Positions 1,951 through 22,553 of a DNA stretch of 33,212 nt are shown here, piece by piece. Location of the stretch: contig JBHIDP010000002.1 in NCBI GenBank assembly GCA_046760185.1, positions 1-33,212 on the forward strand, read 5' to 3'. How positions within the stretch are numbered: position 1 is the stretch's first letter; each line of letters starts with the position of its first letter. A model generated the notes under the pieces. That model was given only the letters and a program-made list of their open reading frames with translations. It was not told the DNA's origin and ran no database searches. The stretch is from Anaerolineae bacterium (GTDB lineage Bacteria; Chloroflexota; Anaerolineae; JBHIDP01). The position numbers were made by a program, and so were the translations under genes.

Positions 1951-2138
1951 TCAAATGGGGTCTCCTACACCTCAAAATGGGTTCTCGGCCCTATACACAA
2001 GTGTAGCCAAGAGGTGTAAACTATAAGAGGATATTCATAGTATTCTTGCTGGTTGATCGCTCAGGCGGATGCCAAGAAGTTCCAGACGGACTAGCAGTTA
2101 TCATCTTCTTGAGAATTCTATCGCACCGGAGGTAAGGC

Positions 2139-2279
2139 ATGGATCGCCTGACAATCTTCTGGATCACCGTGGCCGTGGCATTGGTCCTGGCCGGTATCGG
2201 GCTGTGGATCAATCTGTCCATCTGGCTCCAGGGCCAGGTGAACGGCAAAGACGGCCCGGTCACTCAGCAGACTAAATGA
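2139..2279 (+). CDS. small (46 aa) single-pass membrane protein, absent from the ORF track (below its size cutoff)
   Basis: GGAGG at 2128-2132 lies 6 nt before the ATG at 2139. Hand translation gives MDRLTIFWITVAVALVLAGIGLWINLSIWLQGQVNGKDGPVTQQTK with a TGA stop at 2277-2279. It sits directly upstream of hdrC. Confidence 0.5.
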   Translation: MDRLTIFWITVAVALVLAGIGLWINLSIWLQGQVNGKDGPVTQQTK

Positions 2280-2322
2280 GGTTAAACGCCACGATATGAT
2301 GTCGTTTGCACAGGAAGGGAAC

Positions 2323-2886
2323 ATGGCGAAGCAGGTCGCGAAATTACCATTGGGATTTCCCGATTTCAGTGAGGCGGTTAGAAGCGTAAGTGGAGTTGAT
2401 GTGAATTTGTGTTTTCAATGTGCAAAGTGTGCCAGTGGTTGCCCTGTTTCCTACGCTATGGACTACACACCCACTCAACTAATCCATGCCATTCAATTGG
2501 GGTTGATTGACCTCGTGCTGAACAGCAAGACGATGTGGCTTTGTGCCTCCTGTCAAACCTGTAGTACCCGCTGCCCACAGGACGTAGACCTTGCGGGGGT
2601 GATGGATGCGGTAAGGATCATTGCCCAGCGTAAAAAGATAAGGGCTAAGATACCGGAGGTTCTGACCTTTTACAGGAGTTTTCTGAGAAACGTCGGCTTC
2701 TTTGGGCGCACGTATGAATTAGGCATGATCGCCATGCTGAAGCTCCTGACCCGCAGGTTTACCAAGGATATAGGCCTGGGGCTGAGGATGCTGAGGAAGG
2801 GGAAGTTGAATATCTTCCCCAGCTTCAGGGGGGCACTGGCGGCGAGGAGGATATTTGCCGAAGTCAAGGCCAGGGAAAAGAGATGA
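2323..2886 (+). CDS. hdrC: heterodisulfide reductase subunit C-like (2x[4Fe-4S] ferredoxin-type)
   Basis: Cys motifs CFQCAKCASGCP and CASCQTCSTRCP. The start at 2323 is preferred because AGGAAGGGA lies just upstream. The track ORF begins at 2296. The stop overlaps the hdrB start (ATGA). Confidence 0.85.
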   Translation: MAKQVAKLPLGFPDFSEAVRSVSGVDVNLCFQCAKCASGCPVSYAMDYTPTQLIHAIQLGLIDLVLNSKTMWLCASCQTCSTRCPQDVDLAGVMDAVRIIAQRKKIRAKIPEVLTFYRSFLRNVGFFGRTYELGMIAMLKLLTRRFTKDIGLGLRMLRKGKLNIFPSFRGALAARRIFAEVKAREKR

Positions 2887-3743
2887 GGTACGCATACTAT
2901 CCGGGGTGCTCCTTACATTCTACTGCGAAAGAATACGACCATTCGTTCCGTGCCGTATGCAGCAGGCTGGGTATCGAACTAGTGGAAATTAAGAATTGGT
3001 TCTGCTGCGGTTCAACCCCAGCCCATAGTGTCTCCAGGTTGCTTGGCTCGGCCCTCCCCCTTGGGAATCTGGCAACGATGCAAAAGAGGGGCTTCCAGGA
3101 GGTTGTCGTTCCCTGCGCCTCATGTTTCTCCCGGTTCAAAACGGCTCTGCACAACGTGGAGAATGAACCTGGGCTGAGAGAAGAGATCGAGCAGGTGATC
3201 GAAGGCAACTGGAGCGATGACATCAAGGTTTATCATCCACTCCAGATATTTTCTGAGGAGTCTCAATTAGGCAAGATTTCTGGCCTTGTGAAGCGAGAAT
3301 TGGCTGGCTTGAAGGTGGTTTGCTACTACGGGTGTCTGCTAACGCGACCACCAAAGGTTGCCCAGTTCGACACCTGTGAGTATCCGGAAAGCATGGATCG
3401 GGTGTTAAGGGCACTGGGCATTGCCACCTTGGATTGGTCTTACAAGACCGATTGCTGCGGGGCCGCTTTCGCCCTGACTAGAACCGACATTGTGTTGAAA
3501 CTGAGCCATGAGATTTTGGAGGGGGCCAAGTCCGTGGGCGCGGACGCAATTGCCGTTGCCTGCCCCCTCTGTCATGCCAATCTAGATACGCGTCAGGAAG
3601 AAATCGAGAAAGATTACGGCGCGGATTACAAGTTGCCGATCTTCTATTTCACCGAGTTGATGGGAATCAGTTTTGGGCTGTCGTCAAAGGAGTTATTGCT
3701 TGGAAAGCACTTAGTCGGTGCTGAAAAAATTTTGAGCAGGTGA
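2883..3743 (+). CDS. hdrB: heterodisulfide reductase subunit B-like (two CCG domains)
   Basis: 286 aa. The CCG-type motifs are NWFCCGSTP...VPCASC and TDCCGAAF...ACPLCH. The ATGA overlap with hdrC and the GTGA overlap with hdrA indicate coupling. Confidence 0.9.
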   Translation: MRYAYYPGCSLHSTAKEYDHSFRAVCSRLGIELVEIKNWFCCGSTPAHSVSRLLGSALPLGNLATMQKRGFQEVVVPCASCFSRFKTALHNVENEPGLREEIEQVIEGNWSDDIKVYHPLQIFSEESQLGKISGLVKRELAGLKVVCYYGCLLTRPPKVAQFDTCEYPESMDRVLRALGIATLDWSYKTDCCGAAFALTRTDIVLKLSHEILEGAKSVGADAIAVACPLCHANLDTRQEEIEKDYGADYKLPIFYFTELMGISFGLSSKELLLGKHLVGAEKILSR

Positions 3744-6700
3744 CAGCGATGTCTGATGACAAAAAAGTAGGCGCAGCTTTGGTAGTAGGCGGAGGCATTG
3801 CTGGGATGCAGGCGGCGCTGGATTTAGCCGGATCGGGTATCAAGGTCTATCTGGTGGATAAGAAGCCTGCCATTGGCGGCACCATGGCTCAGCTCGACAA
3901 GACCTTCCCCACCAACGACTGCGCCATGTGCACCATGGCGCCACGACTAGTCGATGTCGCTAGGCACCTCAATATCGAGCTCGTGACGTACTCAACTGTA
4001 GAGAACGTGACTGGAGAAGCGGGAAACTTTAAGGTCAAGATCAGGAACCTTAGAAGGTTCGTTGATCTGGAAAAATGTACGGGATGTGGCGAATGCGAAA
4101 ATGCATGCCCTGTGGAAGTAAAGGACGAGTTCAACCTTGGCTTGTCGAATAGGAAAGCCATCTATAGGCTATACCCGCAGGCCATCCCGAATGTTTTCAC
4201 CATTGACAAGCTTGATGAGAAATCTCCATGTAAAGTTGCGTGTCCTGCAAGGGTCAATGCACAAGCATACGTCAAGCTTATCTCGCAGAAGAAGTTCAGC
4301 GAGGCCCTTGCGATAATCAGGGAAAGGAACCCGTTCCCGGCGATATGTGGCCGCGTCTGTCACCACCCGTGCGAGGAGGAGTGCAATAGAAAAGATGTAG
4401 ACGAAGCCATCGCAATCCGCGGGCTGAAGAGGTTTGCCATAGACCACGCGATGCAAAACGGTGAGGAAGCCCCGGAGCCAGTAGCTCCAACCAAGGGGGA
4501 AAAGGTTGCGGTCATAGGAGCGGGGCCGGCAGGTCTTACCTGTGCGCTGAGACTCGTAGAGATGGGCTACCCCACGACAGTGATCGATGCCTCCGCCGAG
4601 CCGGGGGGCATGATGACGGCCTGCATTCCCAACTACCGCATACCCAAGAGCATAGCCAGATACGACATCAACCGCATACTTGCCCACGGCGTGACATTGA
4701 GAGTAAATACCAAGGTCGGAAAGGATGTGACGCTCGATGAGCTAAGAGGACAGTTCAACGCTATCTTCGTCGCGATAGGGGCGCAAGACGCGGCTAAACT
4801 GCCGGTTGAGGGGGCGGAGTCCCAAGGTGTCCTTTTCGGCTTACCATTCCTGCGAGAGGCAAAAGGCAATGGGAAGGTCGAAAATTTCGGAGAGAGCCCA
4901 ATCATTATCGGTGGTGGCAATGTCGGGATAGATTGCGCGAAGACCGCCTTGCGACTTGGTGCTAAGGAGGTTCACCTTGTTTGTCTCGAGACTCGAGATC
5001 TTGCATCCAAAGATAGAATGCCTGCACATAACTGGGAAATAGAAGAGGCTGAGGAAGAAGGCGTAGTGATACATCCGTGTCTAGGCCCAAAGAAAATCGT
5101 CATTGATAATGGGCGAGTCACGGGATTGGAAACTATCGCTTGCACTTCAGTCTACGACGATTCCGGGAAATTCGCTCCCAAATTCGACAAGGATAGCCCG
5201 TCTCCGACAATCCCGGGTGACACTGTAATAATCGCCATCGGCCAGAGGTCAGACCTAAGCGGTTTTGAGCAACTGGAACAAGAGCGCCGCCTCATCAAGG
5301 TCGACCCGATAACCCTCCAAACAAGCATACCCGGGATCTTCGCTGGCGGCGATATTGTCAGCGGGCCAGCCTCCGTGGTGGAAGCTGTACAGCATGGCAA
5401 CGAAGCCGCCATATCCATTGACAGATACCTGAGGGGGGAAAACCTCAGGGAGGGTCGTGGCCTAGAAGAGCCGAAAATTACACAGGTACGGGAAGAAGTC
5501 AAGAAAGAAGCCAGGCAAAACATGCCGAAGCTGTCGGCGTCCGAAAGGAAGACCACGTTCTCGGAGATTGAACTTGGCTTCACCGAGGAGATGGCGGTTT
5601 CCGAAGCGAACAGATGTCTGAGTTGCTCCATTTGCGCTGAATGTCTCCAATGCGTGAAGGCCTGCAAAGCTGAGGCTATTGACCATCAAATGCAGGAACG
5701 AGTGTTGGAATTGGATGTGGGCGCTGTAATACTCGCGGCTGGCTACGAAATAGTTGACCCTGAGGCGAAGAAAGAGCTTGGCTATGGCAGGTACCCCAAC
5801 GTCATCTCAAGCCTCCAGTTTGAGCGATTGCTTTCGGCAAGCGGCCCGCATATGGGCAAGGTGCTGCGCCCCTCCGACCTAAAAACCCCCAAGAAAGTAG
5901 CCTTCATCCAGTGCGTGGGCTCGCGGGAGATTGAGCACAACTACTGCTCCTCCGTGTGCTGTATGTATGCCACCAAAGAGGCCATCATAGTCAAAGAGCA
6001 CGAGCCCGATACAGACTGTACCATCTTTTACATTGACCTACGGGCCTTCGGAAAGGGGTTCGAGGCTTACTATAACCGCGCTAAGGAACTCGGCATCCGA
6101 TACATCCGATGCCGCCCCTCATCTATTAAAGAAGTGCCGCAAACCAGAAACCTCTTAATTCAATATCAGAAAGAAGGCGGCCAAATCGCCACCGAAGATT
6201 TCGACCTCGTCGTCCTCTCCGTAGGGCTTAGGCCAATACCGGAGGGGGCTGAACTGGCTCGGGTCTTTGGCATCGACCTTAACGAGCACGGCTTCGCCAG
6301 CACCAAGGAGTTCTCGCCAACCGAGTCTTCCAGGCAGGGGGTCTATGTGGCGGGCTTATTCTCCGGGCCGAAGGATATACCGGAGAGCGTGATGGAGGCC
6401 TCTGCCGCTGCATCCAAGGTGATGGGCTTTCTGGCCGAGGAGAGAGGGAGCCTCATTGCTGAGAAGACATACCCGCCGGAAAGGGATGTGTCGGGCCAGG
6501 AGCCACGCATTGGCGTTTTCATCTGCCATTGCGGCAGGAACATAGCCGGGGTAGTGAACATCTCAGAACTGGTTGAATACGCTAGAACATTGCCCAACGT
6601 CAGCTACGTCGAGGACAACCTGTATACTTGTTCCACGGACACCCAGCAGGTCATCACCCAAAAAATCCAGGAGCATGATCTGAACCGGGTTATCGTGGCC

Positions 6701-8179
6701 TCCTGCACCCCGAGAACCCACGAGCCCCTGTTCCAGGATACCTTAAGGGAAGCTGGGCTCAACCCCTACCTGTTCGAGATGGCCAATATCCGCGACCAGT
6801 GCTCCTGGGTGCACATGCACGAGCCAGAAGCGGCAACGGAAAAGGCGAAGGACCTGGTAAGGATGGCCGTGGCCAAGGCAAGGCTCCTGGAGCCTCTGTA
6901 CCCTCAGTTTGTAGACGTCATTCCCAGGGCTCTGGTCATTGGCGGTGGTATGGCTGGAATGACGGCTGCCCTTGACCTCGCGGAACAGGGGTTTGAAACC
7001 TATCTGCTGGAAAAGAGCCTCACCCTGGGTGGCAACGTGCGAAGGCTGAAATTCCTCATGAACGGCGATGATCCACAGGAATGGCTGGATACCCTGATCC
7101 AAAAGGTGACCACACACCCCAAGGTTCAGGTTTACACCGAGGCAGAAATCTCAGACTTCCAGGGGTCAATAGGCAACTTTAAGACGGAGTTTATAGCCAA
7201 CGGCAAGGTTCATAGCGTGGAGCACGGGGTTGTCATCGTGGCCACCGGTGCCCAAGAGTACAGGCCGCAGGAATATATGTATGGTCAAGACCCGAGGGTG
7301 ATGACCCAGCTCGAGCTGGAGGAGAAGCTGACGAACGGCGACTTCAAAGCCGGTTCAGTTGTTATGGTCCAGTGCGTAGGCTCGTGCGAGGAGCCACAAG
7401 GCTATTGCAGCCGGCTGTGCTGTTCTCAGGCAGTAAAGAATGCCCTGAAGATGAAAGAAGGAAAACAACAGGCAGATGTGTTCATCCTGCACCGGGATGT
7501 TCGCACCTATGGCTTCAACGAGGCATACTACCGCAAGGCGCGCGAAGCCGGGGTGAGGTTCATCCGCTTCGAGCAGGGCCACGAGCCAGAAGTGACATCT
7601 GCTAACGGACACCTGGCGGTGTCGGTTGACGATAGCCTGCTGGGTATGAGGCTGAGTATCAACTGTGATGCCGTCGTCCTAGCCGCTGGCATAGTACCTC
7701 GGGATGACAATAGCGATCTGGCCCAGAAGCTCAAGATACCTCTAACCCAGGATGGATTCTTCCTGGAGGCCCACATGAAGCTGCGGCCTGTAGATTTCGC
7801 CAGCGACGGCATCTTCCTCTGCGGCCTGGCCCATGCCCCTAAGTCTCTGACTGAAAGCATTGTCCAGGCAAGCGCAGCAGCGGCCAGGGCGGCCACGGTC
7901 CTCTCCAAGCGCCAGATTGAGCTGGAGCCGAAAATCTCCCAGGTGGTGGACGAGAACTGTGATGGCTGTGCCTACTGCATTGAGCCTTGCCCCTACGATG
8001 CCATCACCCTCATAGAGTACATGAAGGAAGGCGCCGTGAAGAAGACAGTCGAGTCGGACCCCGCCAAGTGCCGTGGCTGCGGGGTATGCCAGGCCACCTG
8101 TCCCAAGAAGGGAATCTTTGTTCGCAACTTCAGGCTGGAGCAGATATCAGCCATGGTGGAGGCAGCATTGACGAGATGA
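3740..8179 (+). CDS. hdrA: giant HdrA-family fusion: an HdrA-like module interrupted by a GltD/NfnB-like NAD(P)H-FAD module, followed by a second complete HdrA module
   Basis: 1479 aa. FAD fingerprints are VVGGGIAGMQAALDLA (N-terminus) and VIGGGMAGMTAALDLA (about aa 1066). The HdrA signature CxGSR/C...YCSxxCC occurs twice (QCVGSREIEHNYCSSVCC and QCVGSCEEPQGYCSRLCC). GltD-like motifs at about aa 160-570 are NPFPAICGRVCHHPCEEECNR, VAVIGAGPAGL and IIIGGGNVGIDCA. CHCGRNIAG marks the HdrA N-terminal cluster domain at about aa 929. There are several CxxCxxCxxxCP ferredoxin motifs. An alternative ATG start lies at 3749. Confidence 0.9.
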   Translation: MTAMSDDKKVGAALVVGGGIAGMQAALDLAGSGIKVYLVDKKPAIGGTMAQLDKTFPTNDCAMCTMAPRLVDVARHLNIELVTYSTVENVTGEAGNFKVKIRNLRRFVDLEKCTGCGECENACPVEVKDEFNLGLSNRKAIYRLYPQAIPNVFTIDKLDEKSPCKVACPARVNAQAYVKLISQKKFSEALAIIRERNPFPAICGRVCHHPCEEECNRKDVDEAIAIRGLKRFAIDHAMQNGEEAPEPVAPTKGEKVAVIGAGPAGLTCALRLVEMGYPTTVIDASAEPGGMMTACIPNYRIPKSIARYDINRILAHGVTLRVNTKVGKDVTLDELRGQFNAIFVAIGAQDAAKLPVEGAESQGVLFGLPFLREAKGNGKVENFGESPIIIGGGNVGIDCAKTALRLGAKEVHLVCLETRDLASKDRMPAHNWEIEEAEEEGVVIHPCLGPKKIVIDNGRVTGLETIACTSVYDDSGKFAPKFDKDSPSPTIPGDTVIIAIGQRSDLSGFEQLEQERRLIKVDPITLQTSIPGIFAGGDIVSGPASVVEAVQHGNEAAISIDRYLRGENLREGRGLEEPKITQVREEVKKEARQNMPKLSASERKTTFSEIELGFTEEMAVSEANRCLSCSICAECLQCVKACKAEAIDHQMQERVLELDVGAVILAAGYEIVDPEAKKELGYGRYPNVISSLQFERLLSASGPHMGKVLRPSDLKTPKKVAFIQCVGSREIEHNYCSSVCCMYATKEAIIVKEHEPDTDCTIFYIDLRAFGKGFEAYYNRAKELGIRYIRCRPSSIKEVPQTRNLLIQYQKEGGQIATEDFDLVVLSVGLRPIPEGAELARVFGIDLNEHGFASTKEFSPTESSRQGVYVAGLFSGPKDIPESVMEASAAASKVMGFLAEERGSLIAEKTYPPERDVSGQEPRIGVFICHCGRNIAGVVNISELVEYARTLPNVSYVEDNLYTCSTDTQQVITQKIQEHDLNRVIVASCTPRTHEPLFQDTLREAGLNPYLFEMANIRDQCSWVHMHEPEAATEKAKDLVRMAVAKARLLEPLYPQFVDVIPRALVIGGGMAGMTAALDLAEQGFETYLLEKSLTLGGNVRRLKFLMNGDDPQEWLDTLIQKVTTHPKVQVYTEAEISDFQGSIGNFKTEFIANGKVHSVEHGVVIVATGAQEYRPQEYMYGQDPRVMTQLELEEKLTNGDFKAGSVVMVQCVGSCEEPQGYCSRLCCSQAVKNALKMKEGKQQADVFILHRDVRTYGFNEAYYRKAREAGVRFIRFEQGHEPEVTSANGHLAVSVDDSLLGMRLSINCDAVVLAAGIVPRDDNSDLAQKLKIPLTQDGFFLEAHMKLRPVDFASDGIFLCGLAHAPKSLTESIVQASAAAARAATVLSKRQIELEPKISQVVDENCDGCAYCIEPCPYDAITLIEYMKEGAVKKTVESDPAKCRGCGVCQATCPKKGIFVRNFRLEQISAMVEAALTR

Positions 8180-8595
8180 GCACTGAAACCTTCGAGCCGT
8201 TGGTCATAACCTTCTGTTGCAACTGGTGCTCCTATGCCGGGGCGGACCTGGCCGGGGTTTCCAGGATCCAATATCCGCCGAACATACGCATTATCAGGGT
8301 TATGTGCTCTGGCATGGTGCACCCGAACCTGGTTATGGATGCCTTGACTAAAGGCGCCGACGGGGTGCTCATTTGCGGCTGCCACCCCGGGGACTGCCAC
8401 TACCAGGAGGGCAACCTAAAGGCCGAGGCGAGGGCCGATGCCATCAAGCTGATGATGGAGGACTTCGGTATCGAAGAGGAGAGGTTCAGGCTGGAGTGGG
8501 TGTCCGCCTCTGAGGCGAGCAGATTTGCTCAGGTCGTGACCGACATGGTGTCCCAGATCAAGGCCCTAGGCCCCAGCCCGTTCAAAACTTTCTAG
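8176..8595 (+). CDS. mvhD: MvhD-like (methyl-viologen-reducing hydrogenase delta subunit family, [2Fe-2S])
   Basis: Translation from the ATG at 8176 gives MSTETFEPLVITFCCNWCSYAGADLAG...MCSG...ICGCHPGDCHY. The ATGA overlap with the hdrA stop indicates coupling. The track ORF from 7987 is a frame extension inside hdrA. Confidence 0.9.
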   Translation: MSTETFEPLVITFCCNWCSYAGADLAGVSRIQYPPNIRIIRVMCSGMVHPNLVMDALTKGADGVLICGCHPGDCHYQEGNLKAEARADAIKLMMEDFGIEEERFRLEWVSASEASRFAQVVTDMVSQIKALGPSPFKTF

Positions 8596-8606
8596 GGGGA
8601 GAGCAG

Positions 8607-8807
8607 GTGGAATTGGCAAGGACGTTTGGCGGCAAGAAGTTCATGTGGGACGGAAGGGTTTACGAGGATCAAAAGGAAGCCCAGGAGGTTGGTCAAAAGT
8701 ACAGAGGCGACGGCTTTGAGGTCGAGCTGGTTGAGGAAAACGGACAGTGCTTCTTATTCACCCGGAGGGTGGTTAAAGAAGTGGTAGTTGAGGGACAACC
8801 AATCTGA
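8607..8807 (+). CDS. small hypothetical protein (66 aa) between mvhD and mvhG
   Basis: GTG start with GGGGGAGAG upstream. The product is soluble and charged. I recognise no family for it. Confidence 0.45.
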   Translation: MELARTFGGKKFMWDGRVYEDQKEAQEVGQKYRGDGFEVELVEENGQCFLFTRRVVKEVVVEGQPI

Positions 8808-8822
8808 AAGGAGGTTTAAGTC

Positions 8823-9746
8823 ATGGTTCGAGTAGCGGAGGAGTGGCTGGCCACCTGCGGCGGCTGCGAGGTAACTATTCTGGACATCGGGGAGCCGCTT
8901 TTGGACCTGTTGTCCAAGCTGGAGTTTGTCCATATGCCCGTCATCATGGACCATAAATATTATGGGCAAACGGGAGAGAAAACAGAGCTAGAAATCCCAG
9001 AAGCGGAGGTGGGCATAATCAGCGGCGGCATACGCACCGAAGAGAATGAGCAGGTAGCCGAGGAGATGCGCAAAAAGTGCAAGACGCTTATCGCTGTGGG
9101 CTCCTGTGCCAACTTCGGCGGCATCCCCGCCCTGGGCAACATGTATACGATGCAGGAGATCTTCGACAAGGTCTACCGGGAAACAAGGAGCACCGAGCCG
9201 GGGGATACCCCAAATATGGACATCCCGCCCTTCAAGGATAGGGTGTATGCCGTGAGTGAGGTCGTCAAGGTGGATGTGCAGTTGCCAGGCTGTCCGACAA
9301 CGCCTGAGCTAGTGGCTGAAGCCTTGACCTGCCTTCTGGAGGGGAAGCCCTTCACCCTGGCCGAAAGGAGCGTCTGCGACGAGTGTCCCACCAAGAGGGA
9401 GAAAAAGGCGGTGGCCAAGCTGAAGAGGCCCTTGGAGAAGGTCGAATTTGCCCCGGGTCAACCACTGGAGGAGGTGCGCTGCTTCATGGAACAGGGCTAC
9501 CTGTGCCAGGGCCCAGCCACAAGATCTGGCTGCGGCGGGACGGAGAAGATCCCCCGGTGCGTAGGGGCTTATATGACCTGTAGGGGCTGCTTTGGGCCGA
9601 TCCGGGCGGGGGCCAATCCCATGGTCGACATGATGGGGGCGCTTTCGAGCATCGGGCTCGACCCCAGGGAGATAGAGGACAGGATGGCTACCTTTAACCG
9701 GTTCATAGGCGTTGTTGGACGACTAAGGCCTCTGCCAGCAAGGTAA
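8823..9746 (+). CDS. mvhG: [NiFe]-hydrogenase small subunit, group 3 (MvhG/FrhG-like)
   Basis: 307 aa. AAGGAGG precedes the ATG. Motifs present are WLATCGGCE, GSCANFGGIP and LPGCPTTPE, plus a distal Cys-rich C-terminus (CDECP...CQGP...CGG...CRGCFGP). Confidence 0.85.
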   Translation: MVRVAEEWLATCGGCEVTILDIGEPLLDLLSKLEFVHMPVIMDHKYYGQTGEKTELEIPEAEVGIISGGIRTEENEQVAEEMRKKCKTLIAVGSCANFGGIPALGNMYTMQEIFDKVYRETRSTEPGDTPNMDIPPFKDRVYAVSEVVKVDVQLPGCPTTPELVAEALTCLLEGKPFTLAERSVCDECPTKREKKAVAKLKRPLEKVEFAPGQPLEEVRCFMEQGYLCQGPATRSGCGGTEKIPRCVGAYMTCRGCFGPIRAGANPMVDMMGALSSIGLDPREIEDRMATFNRFIGVVGRLRPLPAR

Positions 9747-9760
9747 GAAAGGAGAATCCA

Positions 9761-9823
9761 ATGAAACAGATTGTTATCCAGCCGGTGACAAGGATCGAAG
9801 GCCACGCAAAGGTGTGCTTGTAG
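9761..9823 (+). pseudogene. mvhA: 5' remnant of the [NiFe]-hydrogenase large subunit (mvhA-like), 20 codons then TAG
   Basis: AAAGGAGA RBS, then ATG at 9761. Hand translation gives MKQIVIQPVTRIEGHAKVCL followed by a stop. xPVTRIEGHAK is the conserved N-terminal large-subunit motif. No frame downstream continues a hydrogenase-like sequence. Confidence 0.7.
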
Positions 9824-9893
9824 GCTCGCATGGGGCCATATCTTTCCTTGACCCACCAGCCGATGCTTCGTCCGCCCGCGTTGTTGTGATAGG

Positions 9894-9921
9894 TTGACAA
9901 AGCTGGGAAAAGTTATATAAT
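9894..9921 (+). promoter_or_regulatory. consensus sigma70-type promoter with no clear cargo gene
   Basis: TTGACA at 9894-9899, a 16-nt spacer, then TATAAT at 9916-9921. Only short ORFs and gene fragments lie downstream. Confidence 0.4.
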
Positions 9922-10292
9922 ATTTGTAAATGGATAATTATGCCTCGGTGCTTACGTCGTTGTGATAGACGCAGCTGGAGGGAAGCTGAGATGAACGAGG
10001 GTCGACTATTTTCCCAGCCGAGACGCCAGGGAGAGGTCGGCCTTTTGGTTTTTGGGGCGGCAAAGTAGATGGCCCGGCGTGGCGGCTACCACCCGGGCCG
10101 TGGCACAGGGTGGACCGAGCACCCGGTGCGGGACGGGACTATAGCACAAGGGCTCGCTTTGGTCAACCTGGGCGAGCCTCTTTGTTTGCCTGGGACCACC
10201 GCTGGAGTGTCGAGGAAATCCTGACCACTGTTGTTACTCCTTTATTACCAACACGTAGAAGGGAGACTACCAACAAAGATTGTGTGAAAAAT

Positions 10293-10466
10293 CTACTCAG
10301 GGGTGTCTAACAACCTTCTCACGTGGACCCACATCTCATCGAAAATTTCCACCGTGAGACGACCAGTCTGCGTTTTCTGCCGGCTGGGATGGTAAGAAGA
10401 CACCAGCCAAAGTAAACCTTTCCCCAATTTAAATGTTGCTGCATGGCTGAAGAAAAATCGCGGCAT
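10293..10466 (-). pseudogene. C-terminal fragment resembling a family-4/5 uracil-DNA glycosylase
   Basis: Hand translation gives MPRFFFSHAATFKLGKGLLWLVSSYHPSRQKTQTGRLTVEIFDEMWVHVRRLLDTPE. The SYHPSRQ-T-TGRLT--MFD pattern matches my recollection of the UDG superfamily C-terminal motif B region. It is only 57 aa, so the N-terminal roughly three quarters of such an enzyme is absent. Confidence 0.4.
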
Positions 10467-10543
10467 AGCTCGGATTGGTGGTGAGATCCTTGGCGATATC
10501 CTCAGTGGTGGATAGAGTCCACCAATATCTGGTGATATATATT

Positions 10544-10578
10544 GACCCTCAGGTTATTATCCTGAGGGTCATTTTTAT
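10544..10578. terminator. perfect 10-bp hairpin, probable (bidirectional) terminator downstream of the 845-aa gene
   Basis: GACCCTCAGG (10544-10553), a 7-nt loop, then CCTGAGGGTC (10561-10570). ATTTTTAT follows on the + strand, and an A/T-rich tract follows on the - strand. Confidence 0.55.
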
Positions 10579-10648
10579 CAATGAACAATCAATCTGGTAG
10601 AACTACAAATCCTATTCCACGTCAGCCACCGATCTGTTTGCCAAAGTT

Positions 10649-13186
10649 CTAGTTTCTCTTTAAATGCTTGTTCACCAGCACAGCCATGCTCACCATAAGT
10701 AAGAAACCAATAGACGGACAAAATGGTCTGCGTGGCTCAACCTCTTCGGTTATTTTTTCTTCATCAGTCGGTTCTACAGTTGGTTCTTCGGTCGGTTGTA
10801 CAACCACCTGTGTTGCTGTCGGGGTGATCTCGATTCTGGTCACCTGATAGAAAGCTACATCTGTGTCATTGACCCTTTGATTGCATGGGAAGGTGATACT
10901 GCTATCAGATATTGTTGGGGTGATTGTCTTAATCAACCGGTTATCACGGTCGTATGCCATTACACTGATCGGATCTGAGGAACTCCAATTTGGCAGCATG
11001 TCTAATGTGATGTCTGTATCGGGTCCCATTGGATGTCGAACGACAATGTCCTCCGCATTACGTTGCTCGATGATGAAGTGATCTCCCTCGCTAAGAGGCA
11101 CACCGTTATATGCGGTGAATATGCCAGCGATCAGGTTGTCAAGCGAGCTTGTGACGAACACACCATCCGACGACAAGGTATACTCATCTACAGTGTATGT
11201 ATTCGTTGTATCCCAGTTCTTGAGCACGCTGATGGTCTCATCATCAGTTTCGAAGGTGCTGAGTGTGACATTATCGGGCAACTCATCGTAACCAGTCATC
11301 CGCGCACCGACGTAGCGGGAGGAAACGTGCGCCTGGAAATCTGTGACCACATTGACCCAGGGACTGGGCAGGCGATGCTCAGGGGGACACATAGGAGGAG
11401 CGCAGATATTGAAGCGGTCCATGTAACCGAAGGCCAGATTCACACTGAGGTCGTATTTGGAGGGGTGCCACTCCCAGATTCGGTAATGGAGGCTCTTGTC
11501 ATGCATCAGCAGCGGTTCAGCAGCATATGAACGCCAATTACCCTCCCCCCACCATTCTTTGCCAAGTTCATCGCCTTCAAAATATATGAAAGTGCCCATA
11601 CCCCCAATGGCATACTCGAGGATGCGGTCGTAGCCGGATTCAACGACGATGTGGACATCGCTGTAGGTGCGGACGTGCTCGAGCCAACCCTCGGAGAAAT
11701 CCATCGGGCTGGGCGCGCTGGGGTTGAAGTCGTACTCCCATGGAAAAGCACCGATCACATCGTGGTAGATCAAGTCGCTGGGAAGGACTTGGGTCATATC
11801 CTGGATATATTGGTCCAAACGCTGTTTCACATAAGCTGGGTGTGGAGAGACATTGAAACCGCAAGCATCCGGACCCCAACAGTAACGCTGCGGCTGTCCA
11901 CTCTCGTCCAGCACAGCCACGTCGGTGATGGTCAGCGGAGGGCTCAAGCTTGAGAACCCCTGGACCGTCGGCGACCTCTCATTCCACCACACCGCCTGGC
12001 TGATGGGCATCACCAGATGCCCCATTTCCTGAGCCGCCTCGATCGCCTGCCGGAGGTCCTCGGTTGTGCCCCATTGGGGATCGGGTGGTAGGAAGTCGGG
12101 ATCGATGGGATCCCAGAAGGGCGCGATGAGGGTCGACCCGGGAAGTTGTGCGAACAACTGGGGCCATGAACCAAAAGTCTGGGGGACGGTCATACCGGCA
12201 CCGATCCAGCCCATGGGAGACCGGGCCACGGCCTCGAACTTATCGCCCAACTTCTGCTGCACCGATGGGTATGCCGCCACGGCGTTGTCCGCCCGATACG
12301 CCTGTATGATTTCGACGAACGATCCCGAAACCCTCACCCGCACTGGGGAACCTCTCCACAACTCACCATCGGCTTTCCATGCAGGTAATTCGCGAGTCAG
12401 CACCGTGGTATCGGTGAATTCAGGGTGAGGTGAGATCTGAAGCATTGCAGGTCGCACGGGACCGCTGGGGTGCAGGCCGTACAGGGCCAGGCTGCCTCCT
12501 TGCATCTGCAAGACCAGATAGTCTGCATGAAGATCCCCAGGATACCTAGCCCGGTATGACCGTCCCTCAGTGAAGAAACCGGACTGCAGTACGATACCTG
12601 GATGAAGATACGGCAGCAGCACTTCCTCGATCTCGTTTGCGGCAAAGGTTAGTTCTACTGGGAAGTTAACCATTATCAATGGATAACCCCATCGGTTGTC
12701 GATGGTGAGTTGCATATCAAAGTAGGGTCCCTCTGTAATTTCAAATGTCACCATAGCCTCAACTTGGCGGCTCATCATCGGATCAGGGGTGTACTGAAGG
12801 ATCAATGTGTTCGTGGCATCCTCCCAAACGTAGTCGAACTGATTCGGACCCGCAGGAGAGTACACGGCTGAAAACTGGAATTGATCGGCTGGATCAGGCA
12901 CATTTGTGAATTCGACCATCCACAGTAGGTGGCCAGCAGGCCCAGTCCCCTCCTGTGAACCCGGCATAACCCTCTGACCAGTGGTCTTGTCGATGATGTA
13001 GGCGATGGCTCCGTGTTGTTTGCTTAAACCTAACTCATAGTAATTCTGGTTCCCTACAACAATTACATCAGGGTTTGAATCATCGAAATATATGGATGGT
13101 GATTGGGCATAACAAGTCCGATGAATGGACCCAGCAAAGACAAGTATGAGTATCAGAATAAACAACGATATTTGAATACGCTTCAT
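10649..13186 (-). CDS. large secreted, C-terminally membrane-anchored protein of unknown function (possibly glycoside-hydrolase-like)
   Basis: 845 aa. AAGGAGGGG RBS. Signal peptide MKRIQISLFILILILVFAGSIHRTCYAQ. A Pro/Thr/Glu linker (QPTEEPTVEPTDEEK) precedes the hydrophobic helix IGFLLMVSMAVLV and a basic tail KHLKRN. The enzymatic assignment is only a weak impression from W/Y-rich motifs. Confidence 0.8.
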   Translation of the reverse strand: MKRIQISLFILILILVFAGSIHRTCYAQSPSIYFDDSNPDVIVVGNQNYYELGLSKQHGAIAYIIDKTTGQRVMPGSQEGTGPAGHLLWMVEFTNVPDPADQFQFSAVYSPAGPNQFDYVWEDATNTLILQYTPDPMMSRQVEAMVTFEITEGPYFDMQLTIDNRWGYPLIMVNFPVELTFAANEIEEVLLPYLHPGIVLQSGFFTEGRSYRARYPGDLHADYLVLQMQGGSLALYGLHPSGPVRPAMLQISPHPEFTDTTVLTRELPAWKADGELWRGSPVRVRVSGSFVEIIQAYRADNAVAAYPSVQQKLGDKFEAVARSPMGWIGAGMTVPQTFGSWPQLFAQLPGSTLIAPFWDPIDPDFLPPDPQWGTTEDLRQAIEAAQEMGHLVMPISQAVWWNERSPTVQGFSSLSPPLTITDVAVLDESGQPQRYCWGPDACGFNVSPHPAYVKQRLDQYIQDMTQVLPSDLIYHDVIGAFPWEYDFNPSAPSPMDFSEGWLEHVRTYSDVHIVVESGYDRILEYAIGGMGTFIYFEGDELGKEWWGEGNWRSYAAEPLLMHDKSLHYRIWEWHPSKYDLSVNLAFGYMDRFNICAPPMCPPEHRLPSPWVNVVTDFQAHVSSRYVGARMTGYDELPDNVTLSTFETDDETISVLKNWDTTNTYTVDEYTLSSDGVFVTSSLDNLIAGIFTAYNGVPLSEGDHFIIEQRNAEDIVVRHPMGPDTDITLDMLPNWSSSDPISVMAYDRDNRLIKTITPTISDSSITFPCNQRVNDTDVAFYQVTRIEITPTATQVVVQPTEEPTVEPTDEEKITEEVEPRRPFCPSIGFLLMVSMAVLVNKHLKRN

Positions 13187-13221
13187 TAATACCCCTCCTT
13201 AACTTTCTAAGCCAACAAGTA

Positions 13222-13365
13222 TTAGATGGACGTTTTTCCACCTAATCGCCCAATTTGGCATGTTAGGCGGACGTTTTCCCATCTAAAACCCCATTTGGCG
13301 TTTTAGATGGACATTTGTCCATATAACACCACCTTTCTGGTGTATTAGCCGAAATTTGACAGTTA
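13222..13365. repeat. degenerate tandem repeat, about 3.5 units of 40-42 bp, each starting with a 24-bp dyad-symmetric core
   Basis: Units start at 13222, 13263, 13303 and 13345. The cores are TTAGATGGACGTTTTTCCACCTAA, TTAGGCGGACGTTTTCCCATCTAA and TTAGATGGACATTTGTCCATATAA. Units 1 and 2 share a CC(A)ATTTGGC spacer motif. A related copy lies at 13525-13549. Confidence 0.7.
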
Positions 13366-13854
13366 TGAGCCAGTGGGGCCTCAAATGCAGTTTTATCGTC
13401 AAGTCGGCTTCGCCAGAATGGGCTGGATCCCCACTTCAGGGGTAATTTGAGGCTTGATAACATAGAAATTTGGGATGTAATTAACCTCTCAGAGGTCAAT
13501 TTTGCTAACTGTCAAATTAGGCTATTAGGCGGAAATTTATTACATCTAGTACACCTGCTGCACCTTCGACCAGGCGCAGATAGATAATTGCCGCTTCCCT
13601 CCACCTCCCAGCGCCGGGAAGGGATCGCCGTCCTGGGTATCTTTGCCCTCTCATTCTTCTGAAAGCTGTCACTCCCAGGTAACAAAACACCCGACCACCC
13701 ACCGGGATCGCTCCCCAGATAGGGGTCGGCTGTCAATCTTTCACACCACCCTCCTCGGTCGACTACGATTGGGACGGGGGCTGCGATGTTGCTACACGCC
13801 GCTTTATATTTATGATATCATAGATGGAGGCACAAGTCAATACACTTCTCTATT

Positions 13855-14061
13855 GTCACGTTACCGCCAAAAATTCATAGGGTTGTTACAGCCAAAATCT
13901 AATACCTCCTGCTAGCTACGGAGTGTCGCCTTACCCCCTACCAGTAGTATTCCCAATACCTTGCAGGCCCCACCGGTTGTGGTCAAGTGCTTGCCAGCAA
14001 CCTATTAGATTTTGGCGGTAACAAATAGCGCTCGACTATTAGATTTTAGCAGTAACGTGAC
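13855..14061. mobile_element. nested terminal-inverted-repeat structure (MITE-like, or clustered IS ends)
   Basis: R1 is GTCACGTTACCGCCAAAAATTCATAG (13855-13880) and R2 is GTTACAGCCAAAATCTAATA (13885-13904). Their inverted partners are R3 TATTAGATTTTGGCGGTAAC (14003-14022) and R4 TATTAGATTTTAGCAGTAACGTGAC (14037-14061). R2 and R3 match at 19 of 20 positions. Confidence 0.55.
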
Positions 14062-14404
14062 AAGTGCTGCCAGCTTGATATTCTGCTCATCACTGTCCAA
14101 CCGCAGTCTATACCGGAAGTAGTCAGCCCTGGATTGTCGCAGAAACTCGAGGCAACTGTGGCCCGGGTCTCTCAGTACATAGCGGAAAGCTGCTTTTAAG
14201 GTCTGGCGATTGGGGTTAGGGATACCTGATCAGATCACTGTCTTCGCCATTGAGGTGGAGGATGTGAGCACCTTTGGCGAAGGATGCACCCTTGTGGGGA
14301 GGCAGCAATCCCCTCTGCTGTGGAGATGGTCCTACAGGAGTTGAGATCGTGACTCTTTCTGCTGAGGTGACGTGTTTTCGAGAGAGATGGCTCCCAGCCG
14401 CCTG

Positions 14405-14827
14405 TTAGGTTGCTGAAAAGAGAGATTGCTTCTCCAGAGGGAGTTCGGCTGCCATCTCGCCATATTTCTGCTTCAGCAGCTCAAGGGCTCCCTCCAGGGC
14501 AGTGCCGACAAAGGCTTCTCTTTCTCTGAGGAGCATCGCTATTCTTGCATCGGCCTCGGCTACACAGCGGCTGTTGAGCACTGCCCTGATGTCCTCTTTG
14601 AGTTGATATTGCCGCTCCAACATAGTTCCTCTGTGTTCCAACAGGAGAGCACATAGCTCCATCCTCTCGTTTGTGGTCAATTCCTCTCTTCCCTTCAAAA
14701 AGGCGTGCCTGGCTCTGAAGAGGCTTTCCCGTTGTCCCTTGGGCAGGGAATGGCGGTATGCCTTCAGATCCCGGTCAAAGAGTTGACGCACAAGATCCTC
14801 AAAGTGTTTCCTTTCCAGTGGACTCAT
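14405..14827 (-). pseudogene. transposase-derived fragment (resembles the central/C-terminal part of ISL3-type DDE transposases)
   Basis: This 140-aa ORF has no convincing RBS. HAFLKGREELTTNERMELCALLLEHRGTMLERQYQLKEDIRAVL parallels the ISL3 pattern (R)xLLKxxExLTxxQxxxLxxLLxxxxxLxxAYxLKExxR. No DDE N-terminal part is present. It adjoins the inverted repeats at 13855-14061. Confidence 0.4.
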
Positions 14828-20250: not shown

Positions 20251-21327
20251 ATGAAACTGACTTCTACCCTTGGGCTACTGATGGTAGTTGCAGGGCTCAT
20301 CCTCCTCATGCTGGCCGGGCCGGTTCAAGCCCAGTCCCCGGCGGTGCCGCCCATCCCTCACTCTACAGAAGATCAGACTGATTGTCAGGCCTGTCACAGC
20401 GAAGGGGGAGCAGGAGCACCAAGAAACCCTGAGGACCATGCTGGCCGGTCCAATGAGTCCTGCCAACTATGCCATAAAGTGGACCTAAGCGTATCCACAG
20501 TCGCCTCGGCCAGGGATGAAGCATCGTTGACCCCCGCAGACTACCAGGGCCCTGATTACTGTGCGCCTTGCCATGCAGCGCAGTACGAGCAGTGGAAAGG
20601 GACCTTACATGCCCAGGCTGCTGTTGACCCCAAGTTTCAGGAGGAATGGCTGAAAAGCCGGAAACAAGCCTACTGCTTGGCCTGCCACACCACCGGTTAT
20701 GATGCCAACACCACTAAGTTCGTCTTTGAAGGGGTAACATGTGAATCATGTCACGGAGCTTACAAAGAGGGGCACCCACCGGCGGTGATGGAGGTCAAGG
20801 AAGAGGCTGAGCTGTGTGGCTCTTGCCACACCGGGGTCCATTCTCCGACCTATGAGGAATGGCTTGTCAGCAGCCATGCCAGAGGAAATGTGGAATGTGC
20901 AAACTGCCATTTAGGCCATTCTCTGGACTTGCGGGCTGAGAACCTCTCTGAGTTGTGTGGAACCTGTCACCATCAGGCCTATGAAGGATCGGTCCACTCC
21001 ATTGAGGGCCTGACCTGCAACGGGTGTCACATGTATACGGGGCTCGAAAGGACTGAATTCAGGAGCACAGGGCACACCTTTGAGATCGCCCCTGAGGTCT
21101 GTGCTGGTTGTCATGGCATGATTCACAGCAAGCGCGAACCGAACCTTGAAGCCTCTGTTCAAGAGACTCTTCAAGAGCAAGTGTTGGTTCTTCAAAGACA
21201 GGTTGCCCAATTGCAGGAATCAGCATCCAACAATCTGGGTATGGGGTTGACGGTGGGTATCGTCGGTGGCCTGCCACTGGGGTTTGGAGCAGCCTGGATA
21301 ATTAAGAAGAGAGGTGCTAAGAAGTGA
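20251..21327 (+). CDS. decahaem c-type cytochrome with an N-terminal signal peptide and a C-terminal TM anchor
   Basis: AAGGAGG RBS. There are ten CxxCH motifs (CQACH, CQLCH, CAPCH, CLACH, CESCH, CGSCH, CANCH, CGTCH, CNGCH, CAGCH). The C-terminus has a coiled segment and the helix GLTVGIVGGLPLGFGAAWII followed by KKRGAKK. Confidence 0.9.
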   Translation: MKLTSTLGLLMVVAGLILLMLAGPVQAQSPAVPPIPHSTEDQTDCQACHSEGGAGAPRNPEDHAGRSNESCQLCHKVDLSVSTVASARDEASLTPADYQGPDYCAPCHAAQYEQWKGTLHAQAAVDPKFQEEWLKSRKQAYCLACHTTGYDANTTKFVFEGVTCESCHGAYKEGHPPAVMEVKEEAELCGSCHTGVHSPTYEEWLVSSHARGNVECANCHLGHSLDLRAENLSELCGTCHHQAYEGSVHSIEGLTCNGCHMYTGLERTEFRSTGHTFEIAPEVCAGCHGMIHSKREPNLEASVQETLQEQVLVLQRQVAQLQESASNNLGMGLTVGIVGGLPLGFGAAWIIKKRGAKK

Positions 21328-22115
21328 AGGAGAAGACACGCTTTGCCAGGAGAGATTTCCTTAAGCTGATGGGAGCACTGGGGGCCTCGGCCCTCTTAGC
21401 CAGGTTCGCTTCATGGTCTCCTTTCTTCCATGAGCGAGCTGAGGCCAGCTTTCCCCAGGCGGAAGCTCCCCAGCGGAGAAAGCCGAGGTGGGCTATGGTC
21501 ATAGACCAGGGGAGGTGCATTGGCTGCGATTATTGCACCTTTGCCTGCAAGGCTGTGAATGATACAGCGCCGAACATCTACTGGAACCTCGTCCTTACCG
21601 AAAGCGGGCTACGGGGAGGCCACGTATTTCTGCCCAGACCTTGCCTGCACTGTCAGCACGCCCCCTGCGTCGAAGTCTGCCCGGTGGGAGCTACCTATGC
21701 CAGAGAAGATGGCATCATTGTCATGGACTATAACAAATGCATCGGATGCCGCTATTGTGAGGTCGCCTGTCCCTACGGAGCGCGCTACTTCAACTGGAAA
21801 GAGCCCACCGAGGAGAACCGGTACGTGCCTGCCTGGGGCACGCCGGAAGTAGAGAGACGTCCACGAGGAGTGGTGGAGAAATGCTCCTTCTGCATCCAGA
21901 GGATAGACAGGGGGTTGGCAAGAGGCTTGACGCCAGGGGTTGATCGCGAGGCCACGCCAGCCTGCGTCAACATCTGCCCCGTGGAGGCGCGGTTCTTCGG
22001 TGATTTGAACGACCCTACAAGCAAGGTCTCTCAACTGCTCCGCAGCAGAAGGAGCTTCCGGCTCAGGGAAGACCTAGGAACCGAACCACGAGTTTACTAT
22101 TCGCCACCATCATAG
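21324..22115 (+). CDS. TAT-exported 4x[4Fe-4S] protein of the NrfC/PsrB/DmsB family
   Basis: The GTG start overlaps the cytochrome stop (GTGA). The twin-arginine signal is RRDFLKLMGALGASALL. Cys clusters are CIGCDYCTFAC, CLHCQHAPCVEVCP, CIGCRYCEVACP and CSFC...CVNICP. Confidence 0.9.
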   Translation: MKEKTRFARRDFLKLMGALGASALLARFASWSPFFHERAEASFPQAEAPQRRKPRWAMVIDQGRCIGCDYCTFACKAVNDTAPNIYWNLVLTESGLRGGHVFLPRPCLHCQHAPCVEVCPVGATYAREDGIIVMDYNKCIGCRYCEVACPYGARYFNWKEPTEENRYVPAWGTPEVERRPRGVVEKCSFCIQRIDRGLARGLTPGVDREATPACVNICPVEARFFGDLNDPTSKVSQLLRSRRSFRLREDLGTEPRVYYSPPS

Positions 22116-22173
22116 ATGGTACCACTTACCGTAACCTATGGCCTATCTTTTGTGACTGCTTGAATTGCATTTT

Positions 22174-22527: not shown

Positions 22528-22553
22528 CATTTTGGCAAAGTGAGGGGTTCGAC

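Follow-up and report, generated by a model that had tools for sequence, protein, structure and literature searches.

Probable knock-out by DNA replacement of a group 3c [NiFe]-hydrogenase module on an hdrCBA operon of an Anaerolineae bacterium

In an Anaerolineae contig of 33,212 bp, which was analysed over its whole length and is hereafter called the window, an hdrCBA operon continues with genes for the MvhD and MvhG subunits of a hydrogenase and with only the beginning of the gene for the catalytic subunit MvhA. The first-pass annotation, made from the sequence alone, had offered two readings of this arrangement, namely inactivation of the Mvh hydrogenase by a deletion or insertion, or retention of MvhD and MvhG as electron-transfer subunits of an NAD(P)H-linked Hdr complex, for an NAD(P)H-linked Hdr. 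Comparison with related loci, designated here by L numbers, favours the former in a refined form: a group 3c (Mvh-type) [NiFe]-hydrogenase module on the hdrCBA operon was probably knocked out by DNA replacement (Table 1).

Table 1. Features of the hdr-mvh locus and of the DNA that follows it (positions in the window)
Feature	Position	Strand	Remarks
hdrC	2296-2886	+	Operon start, together with hdrB; Pfam 4Fe-4S dicluster/CCG domains (hdrC and hdrB)
hdrB	2883-3743	+	Pfam 4Fe-4S dicluster/CCG domains (hdrC and hdrB)
hdrA	3740-8179	+	1,479 aa; Pfam Fer4_20 and Pyr_redox_2, an inserted GltD/NfnB-like NAD(P)H module
mvhD	8176-8595	+	Intact, 139 aa; Pfam FlpD, E 7e-56
orf66	8607-8807	+	66 aa, between mvhD and mvhG; conserved ORF, no assigned function
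mvhG (small subunit)	8823-9746	+	Intact, 307 aa; Pfam Oxidored_q6, E 3.6e-29
mvhA stub	9761-9823	+	Codons 1-18 genuine mvhA (to 9814); codons 19-20 and TAG insert-derived
Replacing segment	9815-14062		4,248 bp; unrelated to any fetched hdr-mvh locus
Sigma-70-like promoter site	9894-9921	+	TTGACA-16-TATAAT, 12/12 consensus matches; followed by ORF-less DNA
Family-5 uracil-DNA glycosylase (UDG) gene, C-terminal fragment	10311-10451	-	About 47 codons; phmmer match to PDB 2D3Y
Terminator-like hairpin	10543-10571	+	11-bp stem with 7 GC pairs, then TTTTT
Secreted DUF6259-family protein gene	10649-13186	-	Intact, 845 aa; signal peptide and C-terminal hydrophobic anchor
Three palindromic 27-nt repeats	13219-13326		Spacing 40-41 nt; upstream of the DUF6259 gene (repeat search)
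MITE-like element	13854-14062		209 bp, TGTCAC...GTGACA termini; right end abuts the protease remnant
HycI-type maturation protease, 3' remnant	14063-14199	+	Last 44 codons and stop, in frame (start 14063/65)
ISL3-family transposase gene fragment	14405-14827	-	Just right of the protease remnant; Pfam DDE_Tnp_ISL3

The completeness claimed for mvhD and mvhG is borne out by Pfam and PDB matches and by the conservation of all expected cysteines. MvhD, whose ATG overlaps the hdrA stop codon, matches chain D of PDB 5ODC (E 8.5e-50) as well as 7BKB_F and 8RVU_F, the three E-values ranging from about 1e-48 to 1e-50, and has five of five conserved cysteines; MvhG matches chain E of 5ODC (MvhG; E 3.5e-64) and has 13 of 13, that is, the full iron-sulfur cluster set. 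At alignment columns with a conservation of 95% or more, neither protein deviates. MvhG is 87% identical to its L087 counterpart at the amino acid level, with 86.7% DNA identity to L097. The small ORF between the two genes gave tblastn matches in 53 of the 92 fetched loci, including archaeal ones, and matched no Pfam family. Further upstream, the hdrC-hdrB segment (2296-3743) is about 79% identical to L087-89 at the DNA level, and the architecture of HdrA as a single polypeptide that includes the NAD(P)H module also occurs in L002 and L003 (56% amino acid identity).

The gene following mvhG had been credited with a good ribosome-binding site and a large-subunit N-terminus, and both are present: AGGAG lies 7 nt upstream of ATG 9761, and the reading frame, MKQIVIQPVTRIEGHAKVCL and then TAG, matches the [NiFe] large subunit over 18 codons. 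The cut that had been placed after codon 20 is correct as to the TAG at 9821-9823, but homology already ends after codon 18, so that codons 19 and 20 (C, L) are not mvhA and belong, with the TAG, to inserted DNA. When the full-length MvhA proteins of three relatives were compared with the whole window by tblastn, only residues 1-20 were found, at 9761-9820, and the next best match had an E-value above 0.2; this agrees with the earlier statement that neither a 3' part of mvhA nor any large-subunit-like frame lies downstream. The stub stops well short of the nickel-iron-binding motifs, which in MvhA of L092 appear as RICGVC (residues 59-64) and DPCLSC (near residue 446), and both RxCGxC and DPCxxC are absent from the locus. 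As had also been noted, no hyp genes occur among the other large ORFs of the contig.

Synteny with relatives indicates what has been lost. An uninterrupted mvhA of 477-479 aa directly follows mvhG in 86 of 93 related loci; in four of the remaining seven the gene is cut by contig ends, in two a frameshift or a run of Ns splits it, and only one, the Thermoplasmata locus L015, has an intact mvhG beside a truly truncated mvhA. In the closest relatives, some of which were reached through the 90% cluster of the MvhG protein (L097, L092, L090 and L087-89, with DNA identities of 87.9%, 86.9%, 84.8% and 81.6%, respectively), mvhA is intact throughout and is followed by a gene for a HycI-type protease of about 165 aa wherever the contig reaches far enough. 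Judged from this gene order, which all close relatives share, the ancestral arrangement was hdrC-hdrB-hdrA-mvhD-orf66-mvhG-mvhA-hycI.

When the window is aligned with L092, L097, L090 or L087, homology stops at 9814|9815. It resumes at 14063-14065 on the same strand and in the same operon. What resumes there is the 3' end of hycI, a gene that adjoins mvhA in most related loci, and the statement that no maturation protease gene occurs in the window thus has to be corrected, although this cognate endopeptidase gene is itself incomplete. The remnant is recognized by tblastn against five relatives (E 7e-12 to 3e-12) and by blastn with 80.9% DNA identity to L097 (over 14065-14200) and 80.5% to L090; to the right of it, synteny with any relative is absent. 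In L097 the counterpart of the replaced interval is 2063-3822 (1,760 bp), so that about 1,760 bp, comprising mvhA codons 19-478 and some 120 protease codons, were exchanged for about 4,250 bp of unrelated DNA. The proposed inactivation by deletion or insertion is thereby supported, and with both breakpoints mapped against intact relatives it is better described as a replacement. Neither the nickel-iron catalytic subunit nor the protease that matures it can any longer be produced from this locus.

A misassembly near the stop codon had been raised as a caveat, and a chimeric contig, in which the join at about 9814 is an artefact of assembly or binning, deserves consideration: the contig is derived from a metagenome, and the break falls in a highly conserved motif-coding stretch that is identical in other species, where de Bruijn graphs cross over. 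However, the junction-spanning 31-mer 9785-9815 is present in independent Logan contigs from SRR29324585 and SRR29324586, and the two contigs (L081, covering 9785-13883, and L082, covering 9785-13290; 99.97% identity) run from 9785 through the junction and 3.5-4.1 kb into the insert. Because the left junction was thus recovered in two independent assemblies, a misassembly at this point is very unlikely. Moreover, 4.25 kb further on the contig re-enters this operon at its 3' end and in unchanged orientation, which a random chimera would not do. The caveat is thus largely removed, and an artefact as the explanation of the whole arrangement is extremely improbable. No independent contig spanning the right junction (14062|14063) was retrieved.

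The contig ends near the two junctions also bear on whether the truncation is only one allele, with a close strain carrying intact mvhA-hycI in the same samples, a situation that would be compatible with the replacement account. The three Logan contigs from the right side (L093-95, from three runs) all start exactly at 14063, which in a k=31 graph means that the 30-mer 14063-14092 has two different left neighbours; as this 30-mer differs from the nearest relative L097 at four positions, its second context must be a closer relative. On the left, L081 and L082 both end at 9785, 30 nt from the junction, but this branch is explicable by another species, since L092 and L097 share the 30-mer 9785-9814 exactly, and graph topology is in any case indirect evidence. 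An intact allele, in which mvhA would continue past 9814 as ACCATTCAG..., was not found in SRR29324583-87: full-length and partial homologues from the full-length and N-terminal MvhA searches, the cluster members and five contigs all came from other samples. A mixed population is therefore possible, and we regard it as somewhat doubtful.

The replacing DNA, which has no blastn or tblastx match to the relatives, is a patchwork. The UDG fragment matches residues 171-216 of the 219 in PDB 2D3Y (phmmer, E 2.7e-6), and it was recovered only in this way, with nothing in Pfam or NCBIfam. For the DUF6259 protein the homologues carry PF19773 and the best are only 37-43% identical; the identical protein occurs in two Logan runs. 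The palindromic repeats upstream of its gene are possibly operator sites. The ISL3 fragment beyond the right breakpoint covers positions 85-178 of the 240 in the DDE_Tnp_ISL3 profile (E 1e-6) and is present in four Logan runs. It was the only piece matched when Pfam was applied to selected scar fragments, and NCBIfam found nothing when both scar regions were translated in six frames. RNA folding of 9925-10290 gave a z-score of -2.8, and Rfam gave no match, at gathering or E-value thresholds, either after the promoter-like site or at the junction. Two further candidates were rejected: a group II intron or known RNA after the junction GTGTG, for which there was no Rfam match and no mvhA exon downstream, and a transposase C-terminus suspected from the string DHRWSVEEIL (about 10180-10215), for which family searches gave no support.

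At the right breakpoint lies an element with the small size, the terminal inverted repeats and the lack of coding capacity of a MITE. Its outermost 12 bp form a perfect inverted repeat (TTGTCACGTTAC and its complement) within 28-nt arms that are 82% complementary, and each end has two subterminal 20-nt motifs, the motif thus occurring four times against none expected. The terminal 12-mer is found only here in the window, and neither the window nor the fetched loci contain a second copy of the element; when viral contigs were scanned with its 18-nt motif, 48 single matches at chance level resulted. No transposase gene for the element was found, nor any inverted repeat between the left junction and the end of the element. 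L081 stops exactly 30 nt (k-1) inside the left terminus of the element, as a k=31 graph would do at a sequence with more than one context, and this behaviour of the assembly graph suggests that another context exists in that sample. The flanks, ...CTTCTCTAT and AGTGCTGCC..., share no repeat, and the target-site duplication is thus absent, which fits a secondary rearrangement and gives no positive proof of transposition.

It is plausible that this small element, or a larger transposon ended by it, inserted into the protease gene, and that mvhA and the remainder of the protease gene were later lost through a deletion or recombination on the other side of it, which also brought in neighbouring DNA. 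Such a later step would explain both the missing target-site duplication and the lack of a repeat at the left junction. How these events followed each other and what part the element played in them we infer from the anatomy only. Inactivation by an IS or MITE with adjacent deletion is a known pattern, and the locus resembles it in that a short non-coding element with inverted-repeat TG...CA ends sits exactly at one breakpoint among gene fragments (UDG, ISL3 transposase, hycI) and in that a missing target-site duplication is typical of secondary rearrangement; it differs in that neither a parent transposase nor a second copy was found. The interruption of a [NiFe] large-subunit gene by several kilobases also recalls the hupL element of Anabaena heterocysts, which undergoes programmed excision. 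There is virtually no chance that the present insert is of this kind: it has no recombinase gene, and excision could not restore mvhA, as the remaining 460 codons are missing from the window, a deletion that makes the change irreversible.

The loss looks recent, to judge from a protease remnant that is in frame and conserved like working orthologues and from mvhG and mvhD, which are without signs of relaxed constraint. The divergence of the remnant from L097 (80.7% DNA identity, compared with 86.7% for mvhG) lies within the spread between intact relatives, with no excess. A recent event and continued selection on mvhG and mvhD would account equally well for the absence of decay. The second of the two initial readings can be developed into one in which the NAD(P)H-linked Hdr complex keeps MvhD and MvhG on purpose, as an iron-sulfur wire that does not depend on H2, and the loss of mvhA is adaptive. 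That both genes are fully intact with all cluster-binding cysteines, that HdrA has its own NAD(P)H module, that Fdh-Hdr complexes (PDB 7BKB) employ MvhD in the absence of a hydrogenase and that in a second lineage, L015, an intact mvhG again adjoins a truncated mvhA would all agree with it. Yet the protease remnant is undecayed and no more diverged than working orthologues, so too little time has passed since the event for intact mvhG and mvhD genes to say anything about selection. No stable architecture with mvhDG only was seen among the 93 related loci, and the NAD(P)H domain of HdrA does not need MvhG. In the solved Mvh-Hdr complex (5ODC family), MvhG passes electrons from the catalytic site of MvhA to MvhD; since that site is its electron source, MvhG without MvhA lacks input. 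Adaptive retention is accordingly quite unlikely in our judgement.

The two subunits nevertheless have to be considered separately. For MvhG a role in electron transfer has no positive support, as mvhA follows mvhG wherever this is visible, L015 excepted, and it is probably a stranded gene awaiting decay. For MvhD alone there is precedent, both in 7BKB and in MvhD-HdrABC clusters without a hydrogenase reported in metagenome-assembled genomes (MAGs), and by analogy with the formate dehydrogenase complexes MvhD could still serve Hdr; together with the NAD(P)H-binding HdrA it could plausibly keep working without H2. A Hdr complex that keeps both MvhG and MvhD as a hydrogenase-independent iron-sulfur relay is very improbable. 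If it were real, such a relay might have arisen more than once, given the window and the Thermoplasmata locus, and it would represent a new subunit composition for bifurcating complexes of the heterodisulfide reductase type.

Among known systems, the locus shares the gene set and order hdrCBA, mvhD, mvhG of its bacterial and archaeal relatives with the group 3c MvhADG-HdrABC complex of methanogens (5ODC family), and differs from it in that MvhA is reduced to 18 codons and the maturation protease to 44, and in that a GltD-like module for NAD(P)H binding is added to HdrA. Group 3c [NiFe] hydrogenases are also widespread in bacteria. In FdhAB-MvhD-HdrABC (7BKB) and the MvhD-HdrABC clusters of MAGs, MvhD is the entry adaptor to HdrA without a hydrogenase, but these systems lack MvhG and draw on a defined alternative donor, for example formate dehydrogenase. 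Here mvhG persists, and the loss of the hydrogenase shows as a scar and not as a settled architecture. The NADH-linked FlxABCD-HdrABC complex of sulfate reducers, in which FlxD is a homologue of MvhD, likewise receives its input from a pyridine nucleotide via an MvhD-like subunit; here, in contrast, HdrA itself contains the NAD(P)H module as a fusion, instead of leaving it to separate Flx subunits, and no Flx genes are present.

The change therefore appears to be an ordinary and apparently recent gene loss (pseudogenisation) and not a new kind of enzyme module. For annotation, calling an Mvh hydrogenase from matches to mvhD and mvhG would wrongly credit this locus with H2 metabolism. For ecology, H2 coupling may have been lost at strain level in a subsurface lineage, all relatives of which retain the hydrogenase; there are hints that the two states occur side by side within the same samples, and this would, if confirmed, provide a natural comparison for the contribution of an Hdr-linked hydrogenase.

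In the hdr-mvh operon of this contig, mvhG is followed by AGGAG and an ATG at 9761, whose frame translates as MKQIVIQPVTRIEGHAKVCL and stops at TAG 9821-9823. The first-pass annotation had described mvhD and mvhG as followed by a truncated mvhA, the gene for the catalytic hydrogenase subunit, and this is borne out by the reading frame and by tblastn, in which three full-length MvhA queries matched only the 20 residues of the stub in the window. An MvhG scan with one genome per species yielded 80 loci, among which Dehalococcoidia MAGs were nearest, and cluster and contig look-ups supplied closer relatives, namely the loci L097, L092, L090 and L087-89 (87.9%, 86.9%, 84.8% and 81.6% DNA identity to the window, respectively). 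Alignments to L092, L097, L090 and L087 place the left breakpoint at 9814|9815, after mvhA codon 18; as homology is lost there, the last two codons of the stub (C, L) and its TAG are foreign, and an intact allele would be expected to continue as ACCATTCAG....

The window comprises a complete contig of 33,212 bp. No hyp genes were found within it, and the earlier statement that it also lacks a maturation protease gene needs correction. Tblastn with the protease of the relatives (E down to 3e-12) recovers its last 44 residues and stop at 14065-14199 on the plus strand, and blastn aligns this remnant with L097 over 14065-14200 at 80.9% identity and with L090 at 80.5%. The right breakpoint lies, by alignment, between 14062|14063 and 14064|14065. 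The interval between breakpoints is 1,760 bp in L097 (2063-3822) versus about 4,250 bp in the window, the latter with no similarity to any fetched hdr-mvh locus; the event was thus a replacement, in which about 1,760 bp of operon gave way to about 4,250 bp of unrelated DNA.

Features of the operon, the replacing DNA and its right flank
Feature	Position	Strand	Remarks
hdrC	2296-2886	+	first operon gene
hdrB	2883-3743	+	
hdrA	3740-8179	+	1479 aa; inserted NAD(P)H module (Fer4_20 + Pyr_redox_2)
mvhD	8176-8595	+	product vs solved Mvh chain 5ODC_D, E 8.5e-50
66-aa ORF	8607-8807	+	between mvhD and mvhG
mvhG	8823-9746	+	product vs solved Mvh chain 5ODC_E, E 3.5e-64
sigma-70-like promoter	9894-9921	+	perfect TTGACA-16-TATAAT; then ORF-less GC-rich DNA
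family-5 uracil-DNA glycosylase fragment	10311-10451	-	C-terminal ~47 codons; PDB 2D3Y, E 2.7e-6
terminator-like hairpin	10543-10571	+	
secreted DUF6259-family protein gene			845 aa, intact; homologues at best 37-43% identical
three palindromic 27-nt repeats	13219-13326		40-41 nt apart; just upstream of DUF6259 gene start
209-bp element	13854-14062		TGTCAC...GTGACA ends, perfect 12-bp terminal inverted repeat; sequence TGTCACGTTACCGCC...
ISL3-family transposase fragment	14405-14827	-	profile positions 85-178 of 240; just right of protease remnant

The operon itself varies among relatives. The HdrA of the window is a single polypeptide, similar in the loci L002 and L003, and L087-89 and L005, the nearest by mvhDG, have three proteins of 288, 999 and 1117 aa in its place (2053-9356 in L087), carrying NuoE-like, NuoF-like and GltD-like modules. 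At the DNA level, L087 does not match window 3978-5693, and thus the operon is mosaic. The 66-aa ORF is conserved in 53 of the 92 fetched loci, archaeal Thermoplasmata loci among them, and matches no Pfam family; it may encode a so far undescribed component of Mvh-Hdr clusters in bacteria and archaea, either a small subunit or an assembly factor.

A misassembly at about 9820, with a chimeric join at the left junction, would also produce a truncated mvhA. Logan contigs (k=31 de Bruijn assemblies) from two sequencing runs carry the gene for the exact 845-aa DUF6259 protein: L081 (SRR29324586) and L082 (SRR29324585), which span window 9785-13883 and 9785-13290, respectively, each at 99.97% identity. 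As both cover 9785-9815, the junction 31-mer is read-supported in two runs, and since the operon resumes 4.25 kb downstream on the same strand, a chimeric join is very unlikely. This support concerns the left junction; the right one is outside the independent contigs retrieved. The three right-side Logan contigs (L093-95) begin exactly at 14063.

Where a stretch occurs in two contexts, contigs of a k=31 graph break off k-1 = 30 nt into it, and the ends of L081 and L082 at 9785 therefore indicate that the 30-mer 9785-9814 is common to another sequence. This 30-mer is exact in L092 and L097, so that other species could explain the branch at the left junction. Similarly, the starts of L093-95 at 14063 in three runs indicate a second left neighbour of the 30-mer 14063-14092, to which the nearest relative has four mismatches; this second context suggests a more closely related strain or another allele, perhaps one with an intact hycI, the protease gene. 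The branch would favour coexistence of an intact mvhA-hycI allele in the same samples, but no intact MvhA from SRR29324583-87 was found among the homologues, cluster members and contigs looked up, and therefore such coexistence is hypothetical. Three further Logan contigs from three runs (L083, L084, L085) all begin at window 6794, inside hdrA, which points to a graph branch there, due either to an hdrA paralogue or to a variant strain.

The replacing DNA is a patchwork. Within 9894-10571 (+), about 620 nt between the promoter-like site and the strong terminator hairpin lack a credible ORF and might represent either a degenerate gene or an RNA of unknown type; the ORF-less DNA has no Rfam match, and the RNA fold of 9925-10290 has z = -2.8. 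The palindromic repeats, with the core TTAGATGGAC...GTCCATCTAA, look like candidate operator sites for a dimeric regulator. The 209-bp element carries two 20-nt subterminal motifs at either end (four matches versus 0 expected by chance), and the protease remnant adjoins its right end. Neither a target-site duplication around the element nor a matching repeat at the left junction was found. L081 ends 30 nt inside the element, which fits the terminus at 13854 defined by the inverted repeat and suggests that the element is present elsewhere in that sample. The neighbourhood of the scar is clearly a place of repeated rearrangement. Further downstream, at 20251-23741 (+), lies a putative membrane oxidoreductase module with genes for a multihaem cytochrome c, a 4Fe-4S protein and an NrfD-type membrane subunit; several LuxR-type two-component systems flank it.

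Among 93 related loci, mvhA is uninterrupted (477-479 aa) directly 3' of mvhG in 86; of the other seven, four run into a contig end, a frameshift or N-run divides two, and one (L015) is truncated. Close relatives have a HycI-type maturation protease gene (163-171 aa) downstream of mvhA. In L015, a Thermoplasmata MAG locus (JBHIFJ010000012.1, 8932-9171), mvhA is truly truncated after ~79 codons and followed by unrelated opposite-strand genes; its protease gene, like mvhG and the small ORF, is intact, making it a second natural case of mvhA truncation beside an intact mvhG. Some bacterial MvhA homologues (P0109, P0128) have a predicted length of 446 aa and finish with '...AYDP' directly before the DPCxxC motif, which suggests an in-frame TGA (selenocysteine) and hence [NiFeSe] variants.

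The protease remnant has kept the reading frame, and its stop codon occupies the ancestral position. It shares 80.7% DNA and 70% amino acid identity with L097, mvhG sharing 86.7% DNA identity, and the same segment in intact relatives at similar mvhG distance is 54-91% identical; compared with these relatives, the remnant has no excess decay. The simplest reading of these alignments is that the replacement was recent. MvhG and MvhD show no deviation at columns conserved in at least 95% of sequences (84 and 58, respectively) and keep all conserved cysteines (13 and 5, respectively); on the reading of a recent event, their intactness is uninformative on selection.

In the solved complex, electrons go from the Ni-Fe site in MvhA via the MvhG clusters to MvhD and HdrA. 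With this architecture, mvhG would be a stranded gene, because its product would receive no input without MvhA. It had also been proposed that MvhD and MvhG are kept for electron transfer. MvhD works without hydrogenase in the PDB 7BKB complex, and MAG surveys give further precedent for MvhD without a hydrogenase; a functional MvhDG-only Hdr complex found no positive support. The locus is a real, well-delimited pseudogenisation of an Hdr-linked hydrogenase, probably recent, brought about by an insertion-deletion in association with a small inverted-repeat element, and adds a case to a type of event already known. The NAD(P)H module within HdrA itself may allow the Hdr core to keep working on NAD(P)H.
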